From a virus (lineage: Duplodnaviria; Heunggongvirae; Uroviricota; Caudoviricetes), in IMG/VR virus record IMGVR_UViG_2862035965_000001: a DNA stretch of 46,081 nt. One strand, 5' to 3'. Positions within the stretch are counted from its first letter, which is position 1. Every line of letters starts with the position of its first letter. The notes beneath the pieces are model-generated. The model was not told the origin of the DNA. It was given only the letters and a program-made list of their open reading frames with translations, and ran no database searches. Position numbers and translations under genes: made by a program. Shown piece after piece: positions 2,636 through 26,547 of the stretch.

Positions 2636-5600
2636 TTACTGCTTCGAGCCAGTGTCACCGCCCTGTGGCTGTGACCCCTGATCACCGTGATCAGTCTTTT
2701 TTGCCTGCTGCTGTGTCTCGTTGCCGCCCATGCTTGCCATGCGGCTGCTTACCGCAGCTGATCGCATCGCTGCGTTCATCGCCTGACTGGTCGCAGAAGG
2801 CTTCTGGCTTCGCTGTCCACGAATGCCATTCTTGGCACTGACACCGCTACGCTGTGCACCTCCGCCGCCTTGGGTTGCTCCACCACGACCACCAGTGCGT
2901 CCGCTACCACCCATCGCGTCACGAACATTAGCACCCATCTGACCAGGCTGTCCGAAGCCTCGAACAGCTTGTGATGCCAGCGAGCCTGCGACGTTCGCAC
3001 CCATAATCTGAGCTGATGACGGAGTACTTGTATTCGCTGTGTGTGCAGTATTGGCCTGGTTGTTCTGCACAAATGCCTGCGCATGTCCAGACTCTTGGTA
3101 GTGAGCCTGACCAGGTGCTACAGGTCCATGTGATGCGTTAACCACATGAGCAGCACCTGTAGAACCGGCAGCACCACCAGAAACAGCGTTACTGATAAAT
3201 CCAGCACCTGTCGCAGCGTTACCCATTGCGCTTGAGACAGTGCCTGCGCCTTGTGCTGCGGAACTTGCTGCGCCCGCTGCACCGATCACACCTGCAACAC
3301 CCGCAATGCCGGCTGCACCTTGTGCCATCTGACCAAAGCTTGCGCCAGAGGTACCTGCATCAGCATTAGTCACTGCATTCTGGATCTGACCAGGAACCTG
3401 TGACAAGTGCTGTGCCGCCTCAGTGAACTTACCGGCCACATCAACACCACCCATACCACCTGCTGCATAAGCACTGTTTACACTGTCGCCAACCTGCTGA
3501 CCCATGGACGCCAGCTGAGTATTCAGTGCCGAGCCAGAAAGATCACCAAGCTGCTTACCAGCCTTTCCAACCGGTGCTTCAGTGGCCTGAGCATTAAGCG
3601 GCTCGACGCCACCGAGAGAACTAGCTGGTGCAAGACCCTGGGATGCTGCAACCTGAAGCGCTGCATCATTCACAGCCTGATCTGAACTCGACACAGACCC
3701 ACCAGCGAGAGCACCCACTGGGGCACCACCCTGCAGCGCAGCCTCGCTCATATTCAGACCTGCACCAGAACCTGTCGCACTGTAATCAGCACCAGTGGTA
3801 CCAACCGCACCCACAGCGCCAGAGACCTCTGCGCCGTAAGTGTCTGGAATCTTTGACAGACCAGACTCAGTGACACTGCTTGCCAGGGACTGATCATCCA
3901 TGACATCAGCTGCCGTGGTAATGCCACTCGACTTCACACCAGATTTCTCCATCATGGTTCCTGACGAGCTCAGACCAGCCATCTTCGTCTCAGCTTCAGC
4001 AGCGCTCATTGGTGTGCCATCAGCATGAAGCGGGTTGCCCTGTGCATCGACGATCGCACCCTCACCGTCGAGGGTGGTTCCATCAGCACTGTACGCAGCA
4101 TTGCTAAATGATGCCTGACCAGAGCCACCAACAGCACCGTCAACGAAATCAGCACTAGCATCCGCAGAAGCGGTTGTATCGCCATCTGCTACATAGTCAC
4201 CATCGACCGTTCCTGAAGCAGAACCAGCTGTCGCATCGGCATCAACAGTAGCGTCGCCACCTGCTGCAAACGAGCCATCGCCGTCGCCGTCCATAATGCC
4301 CTCAGCTGCTTGATCAATGCCTTCCTTGGCGAGCCATCCAGCACCTGCAGCACCACCAACAATTCCAGCAGTAGCCAAACCGGTCTTAGCAAAGTCACCG
4401 AGCTTGCTTGAGCCAGATCCACCACCGTCAGCGCCGCCGCCTGAGCCAGAACCTGAATCAGATCCGCCATCATCACTACGAAGTAGTGCATGGGTGGCGC
4501 CAATACCGACACCAGTCGCAGCAGCACGACGCATCATGCCGTCACCAGAGGTAGCACCCGCAGAAGAAACCTGCGTATCGAGGAACCGGTTAACAACAGA
4601 GGTCACAGCCTCATCAACGCCAGATACCAGGGAGCTACGCACCTTCATCGCGATGATAGTGAAGACGATGACACCGAGCGAAGAGATCACCGTAATAACC
4701 AACGCTGCAACAGCCATGTTATTCGAGGCGCTCAAAGCCAAGCCAACAAGACCCATACCACCAGCAACCACCGCATCAGATTCAACATCACGAAGTGTCG
4801 ATGCCAAAGGTTGCTCAAAAAGCGCCGGCACGGTCATGAGGAACTTGGTGATCAACTGGTACAAGAAAATGGTACCGATAATCTCAATGAACATCGCCAC
4901 TGTGTACACAATGACCTTAGCGACACCGGCGATAAAGCCCATGGCTGCGAAAGGAACAGCGCCAATCAACGAAATAGAACGTCGAATCGAGTTAAACAGC
5001 ATTGCTCCGGCATAACCGATACCAATAACAATAAAGCTACCCATGAGCGAGATCGCAGAGAACCAGTACACGATAGACATTGCACCAGTGCCGATGAGAT
5101 TCACCGAGTTATGGGACGCACGTGAATAGGTGGAGGTTGATGTCGAGGCCGAGTAGACACCGGCGTCAGCAGGGTTGAAGGAGGTGTTGAGGTAGTTATA
5201 CATCGTCAGCGGGGACAAGTTGCAATAACTGCGGTAGTCACCATCGAGAGCTGCGCCTAGATCACCTGGCAAGCCACCAACTAAGCCACCAAAAAGATCA
5301 TCCCAAATTCCGCCAAGTCCACTCGCCGTAGAAACAACAGAATTAGTGCAACGTACAGTCGGATCAAGTGTCCTAAATCCGATTCCGCTATCACTGATCT
5401 GCGCACTTGCCAAGCCAGCCGAGTCATGAACCGCTAGCAGTGGATTTTTCGCCTCAGCAATGTCCTCTGCAGTCTTTTCCTTAATGGACGACTCAGTATT
5501 GTAATCGGTCACCCACGCCATCACATCTGACGCAGAAGTTGGATCATCCTTCGCCAAGTCCTCCATAGCACTTCGAATCGAAGTCTCAAAGCTACCCGAA

Positions 5601-7261
5601 GAGAGGCTCTCATTTTCAATATAACGAGTAAGCATATCCACAGTACGGCCAAAAATAGTCGTTGCTGAGTTTTGTGCAGCTGCGCCACCACCACCAACGA
5701 TATTATTCATCTCCGAGGACTTAGGGTTAGACATCTTTGACATCCAGCCTGCATCTTCACCGTTTTGGAACTCTAAATCAATCGCTGCACCAGGTTCTTT
5801 AAAAGCACTGAAATAATAATTTGAGTTCGCATTAATTTCCAATGTTGTATTCCGTACCGTCCGCAATGATTGACCTGTCGGCGCCTGCTCATCCAGATCC
5901 CATGAGATCACATTGGCATTACCTACCTTCGACGGGATCTGTAAACGTGTATTCTCTGCCCACGACTGGAAATCAACATAGGTGGACAACACGATTTTTG
6001 TCGCGTTTGATCCCGCACCGGTCGAGCTACCAGCGCTCAACAAAGAATCGAGCGCGCCGGTGTAGGTCACACCAAGAAGTGGCAACCCAACAACACCATA
6101 AATAACCCGGATCGCGACCTTTTTAATTGCCGAACCCTTATCCATGCGGCGCATCATGAGAATACCCATCATGGTCAGGCCAAGTGAGACCGGGATAACC
6201 ACAAGCCAACCAATGCTGACAGCCCAGTTATAGATCTGGGTAAAGAAGCTCGTCATGCCTTCAAATGGAGTACCTGCTGCGGTCTGTCCGCCTGCCATAC
6301 CCTCAGTGAAAGTGGCATTAGTGTTCTGTGACGCCGGCGTCACAAGAAGGCGGAAGGGGTTAATAGTCGTCAAAACCTTTAGTACAGAGTTAAAGACAAG
6401 ATCAATACCACCAGAAATCATGTACACAGCCATGATCGAGTAACCCATACCTTTACGCTGCGCCATATCAGTCGCAGAGTCTTGCGCTGCAGAACCATCG
6501 AGACCTAAGCCACTGAGTGTCGCGCCAAACAACGCATATTGGTAAGGACCCTTGTACGAATGCGTAGCCAAAGAGTCATAAGAATATGTCTTCTGGTTAT
6601 TCGCATCACCAACACCGAAGAACCAACCAGAGTCTTCATTGTGCTTCGGATCTGAATAACCCAGCACGTCACCGCCATTAGCAGCCTTATTAAGAACACC
6701 ACCCCACGCGCCAAGGCCAGCGTCCTCTACATCAGTGAACTCATTACCGTCACCTTCTTCAATACCTGCAGTTGCTGCACGGCCATTGGAGTAGAAGGAC
6801 GCCATAGCAGAGGCCATGCGGTACATCGAGTAATCAGGCGCCTTGTCAAGGTTCTCCTCTTTGCGTGTTTCTTCGTTTTTTGCATCATAGAAACACTTAA
6901 GAACATCGTCAGCAGCCAAGCATTTCTCCACTATGTGAAGCTCGCCGAGATTCTCAGTAATGCACTTGAGCAACATTTCCGTGTCACCGTCACTGGGACA
7001 GATCGCTTCAAAAGCAACCTCGCCCATAGCACCAACGACCTGCGCGATAATTGCCGACGCAAAAGCGTCAGCCTCGCGCTCTTTGTTGCCAAATGCACCA
7101 AAACTAAAGCCCATGGCGACAATAAGTGTCAGCACAGCAACTATCACCCGGCGTTGCCAGGTTTTCCGCTGATGCTGCGCACGATCCATGCGTGCAATTT
7201 CTGCATCTACATCCAGACCATTGAGCTGAATGGTTTTTTGATCCAAGACCGCTGTGGTCAC
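2636..7261 (-). CDS. Giant polytopic membrane protein, VirB6-like, with a long Gly/Ala/Ser/Gln-rich C-terminal tail
   Basis: 1541 aa. An N-terminal TM, two clusters of hydrophobic helices separated by a large loop, and a ~600 aa low-complexity tail. This architecture is typical of extended Gram-positive VirB6-like proteins. Confidence 0.7.
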   Translation of the reverse strand: MTTAVLDQKTIQLNGLDVDAEIARMDRAQHQRKTWQRRVIVAVLTLIVAMGFSFGAFGNKEREADAFASAIIAQVVGAMGEVAFEAICPSDGDTEMLLKCITENLGELHIVEKCLAADDVLKCFYDAKNEETRKEENLDKAPDYSMYRMASAMASFYSNGRAATAGIEEGDGNEFTDVEDAGLGAWGGVLNKAANGGDVLGYSDPKHNEDSGWFFGVGDANNQKTYSYDSLATHSYKGPYQYALFGATLSGLGLDGSAAQDSATDMAQRKGMGYSIMAVYMISGGIDLVFNSVLKVLTTINPFRLLVTPASQNTNATFTEGMAGGQTAAGTPFEGMTSFFTQIYNWAVSIGWLVVIPVSLGLTMMGILMMRRMDKGSAIKKVAIRVIYGVVGLPLLGVTYTGALDSLLSAGSSTGAGSNATKIVLSTYVDFQSWAENTRLQIPSKVGNANVISWDLDEQAPTGQSLRTVRNTTLEINANSNYYFSAFKEPGAAIDLEFQNGEDAGWMSKMSNPKSSEMNNIVGGGGAAAQNSATTIFGRTVDMLTRYIENESLSSGSFETSIRSAMEDLAKDDPTSASDVMAWVTDYNTESSIKEKTAEDIAEAKNPLLAVHDSAGLASAQISDSGIGFRTLDPTVRCTNSVVSTASGLGGIWDDLFGGLVGGLPGDLGAALDGDYRSYCNLSPLTMYNYLNTSFNPADAGVYSASTSTSTYSRASHNSVNLIGTGAMSIVYWFSAISLMGSFIVIGIGYAGAMLFNSIRRSISLIGAVPFAAMGFIAGVAKVIVYTVAMFIEIIGTIFLYQLITKFLMTVPALFEQPLASTLRDVESDAVVAGGMGLVGLALSASNNMAVAALVITVISSLGVIVFTIIAMKVRSSLVSGVDEAVTSVVNRFLDTQVSSAGATSGDGMMRRAAATGVGIGATHALLRSDDGGSDSGSGSGGGADGGGSGSSKLGDFAKTGLATAGIVGGAAGAGWLAKEGIDQAAEGIMDGDGDGSFAAGGDATVDADATAGSASGTVDGDYVADGDTTASADASADFVDGAVGGSGQASFSNAAYSADGTTLDGEGAIVDAQGNPLHADGTPMSAAEAETKMAGLSSSGTMMEKSGVKSSGITTAADVMDDQSLASSVTESGLSKIPDTYGAEVSGAVGAVGTTGADYSATGSGAGLNMSEAALQGGAPVGALAGGSVSSSDQAVNDAALQVAASQGLAPASSLGGVEPLNAQATEAPVGKAGKQLGDLSGSALNTQLASMGQQVGDSVNSAYAAGGMGGVDVAGKFTEAAQHLSQVPGQIQNAVTNADAGTSGASFGQMAQGAAGIAGVAGVIGAAGAASSAAQGAGTVSSAMGNAATGAGFISNAVSGGAAGSTGAAHVVNASHGPVAPGQAHYQESGHAQAFVQNNQANTAHTANTSTPSSAQIMGANVAGSLASQAVRGFGQPGQMGANVRDAMGGSGRTGGRGGATQGGGGAQRSGVSAKNGIRGQRSQKPSATSQAMNAAMRSAAVSSRMASMGGNETQQQAKKTDHGDQGSQPQGGDTGSKQ

Positions 7262-9591: not shown

Positions 9592-12021
9592 CTACCGCTT
9601 CGCCAGGCGCTTCTTTTCTACCTGTGCAAGTGCGTCGTCAAGATTCTTCGGCCCTGTTTTCGCAGCTAGTTCTTTCGCCTCCACATCATCAAGCTCCTTC
9701 ATCTTGCGCGCAGCCTTCTCCTCAAAGCGCTCTTCGCGGTGCTCGGCCTTGGCCTGAATAGCCACCACATCCAAATCCGCTGTACCCACCATGGTCGTGC
9801 CACCGCCGTAGTGCTTATCTCGCTTGGATCGTCGCCTACCGCGCTGCGCTTCAATCTTGCGGCGCTGCTCCATATAAGGATTCACACCCAACGCAAGGTT
9901 GGTTTCAAACACCACATTGGTCGCACCTCGGCGCAAATAGCTCGCACCAGAATTCTGCGTTGTTACCAACCGCGCCAAGTCCATCGGAATCTGACTGTTA
10001 ATCAGCGACTGATACATATCCACCGAGTCAACATTCATCGGGCCCAAAATGGTGTACGCAGCACGTTGGAACTGGTTGAAACCGACAGTGCCAAGCATGG
10101 CGTCCATCGAACTGTAGAGATAGGCCACTCGCCCACCACGCTCAGCCATGTAACCAAACTGATTCGCCAAATAATCCTGCACATCAACATCGACAATGCC
10201 ATCAGCACCGTGGATAATAACCACATCACCTTGACCGAGCGTCTCCACGGCAAAACCAATGACGTTAACTAGCTGTGCCATCGCAACACCTGCGCCACGT
10301 CGCAGCAAACCAGAAAAATCATAGATCACGCGGCGTGCAGAGTTAACAGAGTCAATGCCATCTGCAGTGTGCTGATTAAACAAGTCACCGTGAGTATCGA
10401 GCAAATCTTTATAGGTCAATCGCAGCACAGAAATAGCTCGGAACATATCGGGGTCTTTCACACCCTCGAACTTCTGCCTCTCATACTCTTGATCAAGATA
10501 GGACACAAAGACAGAGAGCAGCGGGATCTGATCATGAGGAACCCCAACAAGTCGCAATTTGTCTCGGTTTTCACCAGCGTTAAGAGCCCACATACTCATG
10601 TCCACATAAAAATCTGTGATGATCTCTTTGAGCTTTCCACGCAATAGCGCCAGCTCAGAAGTCTTATCGCCCAGTGCTTGCTCGGTCATGAACACGATCT
10701 TGTCCATGTGTGTTGAATACAGCGACAGCTCATCTTCTTGCTTACCAAAAAGCTCAAACATGTTGAGATCACCGCTGGTCATGTCCACATGCGCGGTCAT
10801 AGATTCTAACTTCGGCCCCATTTCATCAAGCTTGGCGCCATTGAGCACCAGATGCACCACGCGACGGTTGTTGAGCAACGCTGCCTGGGAGATCTTCGAC
10901 CCCCACATATCAACCACACGTGGTCGATTCAGCAATGGCGAGGTGTTAATAGAATTATCTGCGCATACGACATGTCCAGACCAACGATCCACATCAAAAA
11001 GCACAGCGGAGTTGTTGACATCGCCACGCATGACACCGACGTATTCGCCGGCAACATCGTTAAGACCATTGGTGACCAAAGAATAAGAACCTGCAAATTC
11101 GGTCGAAGTAAAGTGGAACCCTTTACCTCGCTTTTTACTATTCTTGGTAAAAATCTGTGACAGCTCCTGGCGCTGCTCACCGTGGTGTGCAGCAATATCC
11201 ATTCGCGATAAGTGCTCGATGAAACTGCGTCGAATCTTCTCTACAGTAGAATCCAAAATCTCAAGGCTTGGTCCGCGCAACAGCAGGCGGTTGTGCACAG
11301 TCAAATATGATGCACCGTCATCAAGTTCAGCAATCACTTCATCAAGATCAAGTCCACGTTTGACTGTCTTGCGACGATTCGACTTGGTGGAAGAATCTGC
11401 CAAGTCCGATTCCTCTGTCTTGGAAAGTCGGTCAGTGTTTTTTAGGTTGTCATCAATCCATGACTGCTTCATACGCTCCACCTGCTCAAAGAGCACAGCG
11501 GAAACACCCTCAGGAAGGTTACGCGGAATACGGTTCACTCCCCAGAAGGCACCGAATTCATCCTTGGCATCCTCATTGTGGAAAAACGACAAAATAGTGC
11601 CGATTTCATCATCCACCTCAAAATAATCTGAGTGGAAAACATAATGTTCCCGTGGCTTAATCACCATGAGGTGGCCATGATTTTCCATGGTGCCTAACGC
11701 TGCCTGCGCGTCCTTTTTCTGCTGGCGAGTCATCGTCTCGTCAGCAAGATCATCGCCAGACTCGTCCACATCATCCGTGGCAGCGCTGGTCGCACGATCG
11801 TCAAGGTCACCAAAACCAAATGATCCACTCAGGGTGCGCGCAGTGCGCGCAGGTACAGGTGTGGTTTCCTCGGGCGCGCGACCAATGATGCGAGCTCCCA
11901 GTGAGGGTGCTGGGAGTGGTGCTCCTGTGTCAGGTGTTGCATGAAGTGCATCAATCTCCGTAGCGGAGGTGTCTGCAGGTGTTTTCGACTGCTTTTTCTT
12001 GAGTCTGTTTAGAAGTTTCAT
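9592..12021 (-). CDS. VirB4/TrsE-like conjugation protein with degenerate Walker motifs
   Basis: 809 aa. Segments resembling VirB4 pre-ATPase motifs (LLLRGPSLEILD; TSTEFAGSYSLVTNGLNDVAGEYVG...AVLFD). Lies directly downstream of a PrgI-like gene. No GxxxxGK[S/T] present. Confidence 0.65.
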   Translation of the reverse strand: MKLLNRLKKKQSKTPADTSATEIDALHATPDTGAPLPAPSLGARIIGRAPEETTPVPARTARTLSGSFGFGDLDDRATSAATDDVDESGDDLADETMTRQQKKDAQAALGTMENHGHLMVIKPREHYVFHSDYFEVDDEIGTILSFFHNEDAKDEFGAFWGVNRIPRNLPEGVSAVLFEQVERMKQSWIDDNLKNTDRLSKTEESDLADSSTKSNRRKTVKRGLDLDEVIAELDDGASYLTVHNRLLLRGPSLEILDSTVEKIRRSFIEHLSRMDIAAHHGEQRQELSQIFTKNSKKRGKGFHFTSTEFAGSYSLVTNGLNDVAGEYVGVMRGDVNNSAVLFDVDRWSGHVVCADNSINTSPLLNRPRVVDMWGSKISQAALLNNRRVVHLVLNGAKLDEMGPKLESMTAHVDMTSGDLNMFELFGKQEDELSLYSTHMDKIVFMTEQALGDKTSELALLRGKLKEIITDFYVDMSMWALNAGENRDKLRLVGVPHDQIPLLSVFVSYLDQEYERQKFEGVKDPDMFRAISVLRLTYKDLLDTHGDLFNQHTADGIDSVNSARRVIYDFSGLLRRGAGVAMAQLVNVIGFAVETLGQGDVVIIHGADGIVDVDVQDYLANQFGYMAERGGRVAYLYSSMDAMLGTVGFNQFQRAAYTILGPMNVDSVDMYQSLINSQIPMDLARLVTTQNSGASYLRRGATNVVFETNLALGVNPYMEQRRKIEAQRGRRRSKRDKHYGGGTTMVGTADLDVVAIQAKAEHREERFEEKAARKMKELDDVEAKELAAKTGPKNLDDALAQVEKKRLAKR

Positions 12022-25926: not shown

Positions 25927-25950
25927 AACACACCTGCCCACACCAACCAC

Positions 25951-25997
25951 AAACCCCCAGCAACTACCGCAATACGGTACAAGCTGCTGGGGGTTTT
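25951..25997. terminator. Bidirectional terminator between convergent genes
   Basis: AAACCCCCAGCA...TGCTGGGGGTTT, followed by a second hairpin ACCCTGCC-AAA-GGCAGGGT. Confidence 0.7.
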
Positions 25998-26051
25998 ACC
26001 CTGCCAAAGGCAGGGTCGGGTCAACATGCGCGAGGAGTTTAACAGCGCATG

Positions 26052-26171
26052 TTAGCCAATCGCGTTCATGAGCTTGACAAAGAAGTTGAGCAAGCCATTG
26101 GCGTTATCCAAAAAGGTGCCGAGTCCATCGGAGCTAAGAACACCTTCGAGCTTTGAGCTAAGTCCATCCAT
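26052..26171 (-). CDS. 39-aa PorA-like mycomembrane porin peptide (not in ORF track)
   Basis: MDGLSSKLEGVLSSDGLGTFLDNANGLLNFFVKLMNAIG*, with an AGAAAGG RBS 10 nt upstream. VLSSDGL matches PorA VLSGSGL. Amphipathic, no signal peptide. Confidence 0.7.
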   Translation of the reverse strand: MDGLSSKLEGVLSSDGLGTFLDNANGLLNFFVKLMNAIG

Positions 26172-26228
26172 TGTGTAACAACCTTTCTTGAGAATTTAAG
26201 AGAGAAAAAACAACAAAACAACGCCTGA

Positions 26229-26372
26229 CTAGGCGCTAAATGCTTCGCCGTAACCTTCGACACCAAGTTCGGTAGAGATCAGACCACCAAGGTCAAGCAG
26301 ATCCCCAAAACCAAGCGCCTGCGAGATCGCACTGGCACTAAGCAAACCTTCCAGCACTGCACTAAGCATCAT
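26229..26372 (-). CDS. 47-aa PorH-like peptide (not in ORF track)
   Basis: MMLSAVLEGLLSASAISQALGFGDLLDLGGLISTELGVEGYGEAFSA*, with a GAAAG RBS. FGDLLD and terminal FSA resemble PorH FGDLAD and FSS. No basic residues. Confidence 0.55.
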   Translation of the reverse strand: MMLSAVLEGLLSASAISQALGFGDLLDLGGLISTELGVEGYGEAFSA

Positions 26373-26404
26373 CACCACAAACTTTCACAGTAGTTTTTGT
26401 TAGT

Positions 26405-26433
26405 AACTTTGTTGATTAAGTTTCAACAAAGTT
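26405..26433. promoter_or_regulatory. Operator-like inverted repeat in a divergent AT-rich promoter region
   Basis: AACTTTGTTGA-N7-TCAACAAAGTT. Confidence 0.5.
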
Positions 26434-26547
26434 TACTATATACTAAAGTGCAAACCAAAGACGAGGAAAGTATGTCTGTTTGTTTGTCCCCAGATTATTC
26501 ACACTCGTTATATCTCCCGAGAATGTCCTAGAAAGGAACTCGATCTC

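Follow-up and report, generated by a model that had tools for sequence, protein, structure and literature searches.

It is an open question how very small proteins without signal sequences pass through the plasma membrane, how they are selected for O-mycoloylation and how they form pores in the mycomembrane (PMC13643282, PMC11066868), and the locus described here bears on whether a mobile element may bring such proteins of its own. The window, meaning the whole stretch of DNA that was analysed, comprises 46,081 nucleotides of a Caudoviricetes record (IMGVR_UViG_2862035965_000001) and lies in a Corynebacterium genome. The sequence-only reading had proposed that two tandem open reading frames in it, here ORF1 and ORF2, form a hidden micro-operon of the porH-porA type that encodes a variant porin pair. 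PorA, PorH and the further small protein ProtX lack signal sequences, and infection by phage Cog needs ProtX and PorA (PMC13643282, PMC9671496). The analysis revealed that ORF1 and ORF2 are real, constrained and orphan genes, that their products have the right size, charge, composition and predicted fold for such peptides, and that they are organised like porH-porA.

Layout and conservation of the locus

ORF1 is located on the minus strand at 26229-26372 (stop codon included) and encodes 47 aa from its first ATG, or 49 aa from an alternative GTG start at 26378, with an RBS-like GAAAG preceding the GTG/ATG cluster. ORF2, on the same strand at 26052-26171 (stop codon included), encodes 39 aa and is preceded by an RBS-like AGAAAGG (26182-26188, minus strand) 10 nt before its ATG, which is identical in all haplotypes compared. 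The two frames are separated by 57 nt, and their position, sizes, spacing and RBS-like sites are exactly those claimed by the sequence-only reading, as are the motifs that it quoted, namely VLSSDGL, FGDLLD and a C-terminal FSA. Its statement that the pair runs against the surrounding genes holds for the two immediate neighbours, a nuclease gene and a 188-aa gene, but not for the genes below 25206, which are also on the minus strand.

Several signals accompany the two genes. A terminator-like hairpin with a U-rich tract (26205-26238, minus strand) overlaps the stop codon of ORF1 and reaches into the spacer, and it is a possible attenuation point between ORF1 and ORF2; the C. glutamicum-type haplotypes have a U-tract that is shorter by 8 nt, so strains could differ in how strongly ORF1 is expressed relative to ORF2. 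Three hairpins were observed 3′ of ORF2 (25945-26053, minus strand; z −4.9 for the 301-nt fold against shuffles), with stems that are kept between haplotypes and a loop that is variable. The last of the three is a long G+C-rich stem common to the convergent secreted-nuclease gene, which gives it the appearance of a bidirectional terminator-like element. The expected terminator at the end of the pair was accordingly found, with the hairpin after ORF1 as a second one. On the other side, a divergent AT-rich control region of 36% G+C (26373-26547) lies between ORF1 and the plus-strand 188-aa gene and is conserved between haplotypes. A simple scan of this region disclosed no sigma-70 consensus promoter. 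It contains a perfect 11-bp inverted repeat with a 7-nt spacer (26405-26433), operator-like and upstream of ORF1, with a single G/A difference in one arm in two haplotypes; from its sequence the repeat resembles an operator bound by a small repressor of the element, and the AT-richness upstream of ORF1 suggests that the genes may be silenced in the lysogen.

The locus was aligned with three other haplotypes, two from C. glutamicum-type contigs and one from a metagenomic contig, at DNA identities of 90-94%. Each ORF contains eight variable sites, with synonymous to non-synonymous ratios of 7:1 in ORF1 and 8:0 in ORF2, so 15 of the 16 variable sites across the four haplotypes are synonymous in the proposed frames (binomial P about 1e-8). 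A further contig added one synonymous change in ORF1, bringing the count to 16 of 17. No indels were detected within the 264 nt of the ORFs, against 11 gap columns in the 57-nt spacer, and variability per site rose from 0.06 within the ORFs to 0.10-0.23 in the flanking DNA. Against the C. glutamicum-type allele, 10 codons of the pair carry synonymous changes and 1 carries an amino-acid change, while five of the six neighbouring genes compared (35:20, 121:100, 32:17, 14:9 and 37:44) are much less constrained; the nuclease gene (40:6) is under a constraint similar to that of the pair. Because 16 of 17 sites are synonymous and indels occur in the spacer only, ORF1 and ORF2 appear to be translated genes under purifying selection, and judged by these substitutions they are real and strongly conserved protein genes. 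The frames of the haplotypes compared contain neither stops nor frameshifts.

A conserved RNA or regulatory region, or an antisense frame over ORF2 as the real gene, would leave the pair without a protein function, and this is very improbable. The region does fold better than its shuffles, at the z value given above, and the antisense frame at 26068-26178 (plus strand) fits the substitution pattern as well as ORF2 does. However, that frame has no RBS, gives a low-complexity product and is not chosen by gene callers, and antisense frames over ORF1 fit worse (5:3 at best). Moreover, the substitutions fall at third codon positions in two separate frames that each have a start and an RBS, the indels spare both of them, and both ORFs on the minus strand are among the genes called in several public sources. 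Contigs assembled from RNA-seq in three studies cover the locus at about 92% identity (C. glutamicum-type allele), those of one study breaking at 25928-25993 beside the terminator, and one 224-nt contig that is identical to the window covers 26165-26388; these contigs are not taken as evidence of expression, because they carry no information on strand or expression level and could include DNA. The first 15 residues of ORF1 (26232-26372) and ORF2 (26055-26171) are alike, following the pattern M.LS..LEG.LS (local score reached by 96 of 5000 shuffles), and this likeness between the two sequences could be a trace of tandem duplication.

The carrying element and the search for relatives

The genes of the window include those for a topoisomerase IA, an SF1 helicase, an SSB, a Rib-domain protein, an LGFP protein, a secreted staphylococcal-type nuclease, a trypsin-like protease and a Fic protein, together with many orphans, and for two large proteins, of 809 aa (9592-12021) and 1541 aa (2636-7261), Pfam returned no match at E 0.01. 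No transporter, immunity or lysis gene was found in the neighbourhood of the pair, and a transporter or immunity gene is likewise missing at porHA and protX. Prophage CGP3 contains the run cg2062-cg2065 (supplement of the Gip preprint, 10.1101/2021.01.28.428610). Because the order of the 809-aa gene, a 289-aa gene, the topoisomerase and the helicase parallels this run, we infer that the element is of the CGP3 type.

NCBI/UniRef-derived collections already include the two peptides, on 122 and 147 contigs and always in the same neighbourhood, and since public annotations call both of them they are annotated hypothetical proteins, not the hidden genes of the sequence-only reading. Among 320 other Corynebacterium species genomes, the 188-aa neighbour gene and ORF1 are present in one (G157), whose PorA and PorH we take to be the textbook C. 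glutamicum sequences. The peptides of the element are 98-100% identical between the two species, but their canonical PorA and PorH share only 47% and 35% identity, respectively. Near-identity of the element's peptides beside such divergence is in keeping with a recent horizontal movement of the element between the two Corynebacterium species.

Beyond the element, relatives of the two peptides were sought widely. ORF1 forms a single 90% cluster among 5.8 billion proteins, a search for longer or fused forms of it found none, and an exhaustive HMMER search of 1.84 billion representatives with ORF2 returned its own cluster only, plus matches to cadherin-like repeats, a tape-measure protein and an HhH-repeat protein that were rejected as spurious summed matches. 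Short peptides match easily by accident, given that the unrelated cadherin repeats reach about 24 bits. Pfam, NCBIfam and PHROGs yielded nothing for either peptide even at E 10; the Pfam family PF11271, named 'PorA', consists of proteins of roughly 300 aa and is unrelated to the small PorA peptide. Sequenced phages contained no real match to the locus (DNA) or to ORF2 (tblastn), and a tblastn search of plasmids with ORF2 returned chance matches only, with E of 4 or more. The Atlas shape search found generic helices only, and the Atlas language-model search gave leads below 0.9 for ORF2 and none for ORF1. The second nearest neighbour of ORF2 in that search, at 0.86 and below the level that is reliable for such matches, was a cluster containing the staphylococcal PSM-beta peptides. 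In the literature searched, no report was found of ORF1 or ORF2 peptides themselves, nor of extra small mycoloylated peptides in prophage-bearing C. glutamicum. On the basis of these searches, ORF1 and ORF2 are orphans restricted to this element.

Relation to PorH, PorA and ProtX

The canonical porH-porA locus of this genome (C1:3091234-3091622, with PorA at G000:C1:3091234-3091368) lies about 1 Mb from the candidate pair, which is on the mobile element. Profiles were built from sequences collected from Corynebacterium species, with 22 and 52 sequences for PorA and 19 and 41 for PorH, and in the six-frame ORFeome they picked out the canonical genes alone, at E 1e-13 to 1e-16. ORF1 scored 0.1-0.6 bits with the PorA profiles, the same as its own shuffles, and 0.2 bits with the PorH profile (reached by 906 of 5000 shuffles). 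ORF2 reached 5.3 bits with the 22-sequence PorA HMM (25 of 1000 shuffles) and 4.2 bits with the 52-sequence one (222 of 5000 shuffles), corresponding to p 0.025-0.044 and to rank 129 of 83,033 genome segments. Its score against PorH was higher, 7.1 bits on the TF..N.G..L core (13 of 5000 shuffles), which is below any genome-wide threshold; it ranked 53 of the 83,033 segments with the PorH N-domain model, and its best pairwise score against any PorH was 47 (reached by 1 of 500 shuffles). With about eight tests taken into account, the likeness of the ORF2 sequence to PorA or PorH is suggestive at best.

The details of the alignments are in keeping with this. The alignment of ORF2 with PorA is limited to VLSSDGL (residues 11-17), which falls on the invariant LSS.G loop at profile positions 10-16, and 9 small ORFs out of 12,144 contain the motif LS[ST].G[ILVF], PorA and ORF2 among them. 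The C-terminal half of PorA, G.WA..A..L[IL]GL in the family consensus, has no counterpart in ORF1 or ORF2, neither of which the HMM aligns in that half. PorH of C. glutamicum is mycoloylated at Ser56, and about half of the collected PorH sequences end in SS; in ORF1 an acidic stretch leads into the ending EAFSA, which has one serine and not two, and ORF2 has no acidic tail. Across 321 Corynebacterium species the PorA profile finds the family in 157, and within this genome it finds the canonical gene only and not ORF2. Extra PorA copies are tandem at one locus, for example about 0.3-0.7 kb apart in G198, G019, G062 and G109, and no copies away from the canonical locus were seen among the 321 species. 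Two tandem PorA-like genes at the canonical locus were observed in several Corynebacterium species, e.g., L054/L073 (G198), and some species have 34-aa PorA variants that start directly at the LSS.G loop (L098, L099, L101-L103 and L105).

Homology of the pair to PorH and PorA is thus not established, because ORF2 gives two weak signals that lead to different families, the stronger of them at odds with the proposed gene order. The assignment of ORF1 to PorH and ORF2 to PorA found no support in the comparison: ORF1 behaves like its shuffles on both profiles, and the better match of ORF2, to the PorH core, would reverse the order. Neither the profile comparison nor the structure comparison that the sequence-only reading had called for supplied a relationship, with no significant profile match to PorA or PorH for either peptide and no match in the PDB by Foldseek. 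Of the wider claim that order, size and acylation contexts all match, the size and the LSS.G loop of ORF2 are supported, with charge and composition besides, and the FSA/FSS and FGDL resemblances are too short to count for much.

Set beside PorA, a mycomembrane channel peptide of 40-45 aa, ORF2 shares its size (39 aa against 34-48 aa), the lack of a signal peptide, few basic residues, a predicted helix-short break-helix plan with the LSS.G serine loop at residues about 10-17, and the place of second gene in a two-gene unit that is followed by a terminator. It differs in having no profile similarity outside the seven-residue loop and no PorA-type C-terminal half, in lying on a mobile element and not beside porH, and in being near-identical between two species that are about 50% different in PorA. 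PorH (about 41-85 aa) shares with ORF1 the first-gene position, a net charge of −6 and a C-terminal ending of F-S-small residue, and with ORF2 the MD start and the weak core match; ORF1, however, has no profile similarity to it, the PorH-like signal sits in the downstream gene, and ORF2 is without the acidic tail ending in SS. The 38-aa ProtX (Cg2875 of C. glutamicum), a phage receptor (PMC9671496), is equally very small, signal-less, acidic and helical. It is unrelated to PorA and PorH, and it differs from the pair in being a single chromosomal gene between purC and purB and in having no sequence similarity to ORF1 or ORF2. Since ProtX is unlike PorA and PorH in sequence, what defines the class of small mycomembrane proteins is a set of physical properties, not membership of a single family. 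In this genome the ProtX orthologue (G000:C1:2949068-2949184, minus strand), also between purC and purB, encodes 38 aa ending in ASS and is strongly amphipathic (hydrophobic moment 0.57).

A physical envelope with few parameters was set from PorA, PorH and ProtX of this genome only: 35-60 aa, at most two K/R/H, at least three D/E, no C, P or W, and a GRAVY of about 0.33 or more. The envelope is met by 11 of the 12,945 ATG-initiated ORFs, and together with an RBS by only six, which are PorA, PorH, ProtX, ORF1, ORF2 and one antisense ORF; having been drawn after the candidates were seen, the envelope shows resemblance and not function. The antisense ORF (G000:C1:2759658-2759780, plus strand) encodes 40 Ser/Phe-rich acidic residues behind an RBS-like site, inside a 219-aa frame, and may be an artefact. 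The net charges of ORF1 (−6, with zero basic residues) and ORF2 (−2) compare with −6 for PorH and −3 for PorA, and their GRAVY values are +0.87 and +0.44. AlphaFold2 predicted helices at residues 2-20, 22-35 and 41-46 of ORF1 (pLDDT 83), and in ORF2 (pLDDT 86) a helix at 2-12, a three-residue break at S13-D15 that contains both serines of VLSSDGL, and a helix at 16-38. With a hydrophobic moment of 0.48 (p 0.016) this second helix is amphipathic, and ORF1 is not notably so. In PorA the acylated Ser15 sits in a linker between helices (PMC11927696), and the serines that receive O-mycoloylation lie in flexible Ser/Gly-rich stretches and follow no strict consensus (PMC11066868). The description of the pair as two tandem, signal-less, acidic and helical micro-proteins on a mobile element was therefore borne out, with size, charge and composition matching the small mycomembrane peptides.

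Other known types of small peptide were considered for the pair and dropped. A Sec signal peptide in ORF1 lacks a basic n-region and would carry a Glu inside its hydrophobic stretch; a double-glycine bacteriocin leader does not fit at its consensus positions and no C39 transporter is nearby; and a WXG100/Esx pair would require peptides of twice this size, with the WXG motif that these lack.

Possible roles of the pair

The pair is best read, in our view and with rather less than even confidence, as a self-contained, moron-like accessory unit of a CGP3-type element that encodes mycomembrane-type peptides. Its architecture of two small genes, a short spacer and a terminator is that of the canonical locus of this genome. 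From the likeness in physical class and layout we infer that the peptides would be exported, acylated, localised to the mycomembrane and paired, and that they may affect channels or phages. They would leave the cytoplasm by the route that the host uses for its small mycomembrane proteins, ORF2 would be O-mycoloylated on S13 or S14, in the inter-helix loop, by the host mycoloyltransferase Cmt1/MytC, and both peptides would insert into the mycomembrane, either together or mixed with host PorA, PorH or ProtX, where they would change the permeability or the surface used by corynephages. The complete scenario, in which the pair is the element's own two-component mycomembrane system, acylated by host Cmt1, co-assembling with or displacing PorAH/ProtX, altering the outer-membrane permeability of the lysogen and blocking or redirecting ProtX/PorA-dependent corynephages, is rather unlikely. 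As pure conjecture, the pair might have the roles in receptor switching, exclusion or DNA transfer that the sequence-only reading had suggested.

Three other accounts of the proteins have to be set against an accessory unit of mycomembrane-type peptides. True, highly diverged porH/porA paralogues, captured by the element and forming a PorAH-type hetero-oligomeric channel, would explain the PorA-type LSS.G loop at the same position in ORF2, its sub-threshold match to the PorH core, and the shared bicistronic layout and charge pattern, and both families do diverge strongly (the 47% and 35% identity between this genome and the C. glutamicum type). We nevertheless regard such a capture as distinctly improbable: ORF1 has no signal on either profile, the signals of ORF2 are split between two families with the better one, PorH, contradicting the gene order, the PorA profile misses ORF2 in this genome, extra PorA copies are tandem at the canonical locus and never on elements (157 of 321 species with PorA), and 1.84 or 5.8 billion proteins contain no intermediate sequences. 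Small acidic proteins often serve as anti-defence factors, and the neighbourhood of the pair is full of small orphan genes, which would suit small cytoplasmic effectors of host takeover or anti-defence, comparable to Gip, the gyrase inhibitor of CGP3, with the two peptides perhaps forming a helical heterodimer. Many small proteins are encoded by CGP3 itself, and overproduction of at least two of them has an effect on the host (preprint 10.1101/2021.01.28.428610). Yet the hydropathy of ORF1, with no basic residue, and of ORF2 is unusual for soluble cytoplasmic proteins, their hydropathy and basic-residue values cluster genome-wide with those of the three known mycomembrane peptides, and, judging by the primers, one of which was looked for in the window and is absent from it, the pair does not belong to the eleven 'cytoplasmic' small proteins of the preprint screen; a cytoplasmic role is rather unlikely.

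Release from the cell is also conceivable, with the peptides acting on membranes as PSM-like surfactants, as a leaderless two-peptide bacteriocin or as lysis helpers that disturb the mycomembrane. A leaderless helical pair of about 40 aa with alike N-termini, as in duplicated peptide pairs, and with a strongly amphipathic long helix in ORF2 would fit this description, and the PSM-beta-containing cluster in the language-model search is a lead only. The PSM-beta peptides (PF05480; psm-mec on SCCmec) share with the pair that they are leaderless, roughly 44-aa amphipathic helices, sometimes on mobile elements; they differ in belonging to another phylum and envelope type and in requiring a dedicated ABC exporter, and no HMM match to them was found, even at E 10 in Pfam. 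Leaderless bacteriocins are typically cationic, whereas both peptides are anionic, and neither an adjacent transporter, immunity or lysis gene nor a double-glycine leader accompanies them, so that we hold release to be distinctly unlikely.

The meaning of the pair depends on which of these accounts is right. If the peptides are cytoplasmic instead, they would join the small CGP3 effectors such as Gip. As mycomembrane-type peptides they would stand beside the phage-encoded porins of Gram-negative lysogens, e.g., Lc of phage PA-2, a prophage-borne outer-membrane channel that alters the receptors of the lysogen. Such porins share with the proposed role the concept of an outer-membrane channel supplied by a prophage, and they differ in being beta-barrels with signal peptides and clear homology to host porins, whereas for the pair the fold, the export route and the localisation are predictions. 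Because the element is missing from the prophage-free strain MB001, which is used in most recent work on the envelope and on phage receptors, the pair could be added back there as an orthogonal test substrate. An effect of the pair on phage infection that depends on ProtX or PorA would amount to the first lysogenic conversion of a mycomembrane. If the complete scenario given above is true, no mycomembrane proteins were known on a mobile element before ORF1 and ORF2, and the two would be the mycolata counterpart of the Gram-negative phage-encoded porins. With only three unrelated substrates to compare so far, a fourth and a fifth that share no sequence with them and are borne by a mobile element would sharpen the rules by which such substrates are recognised.
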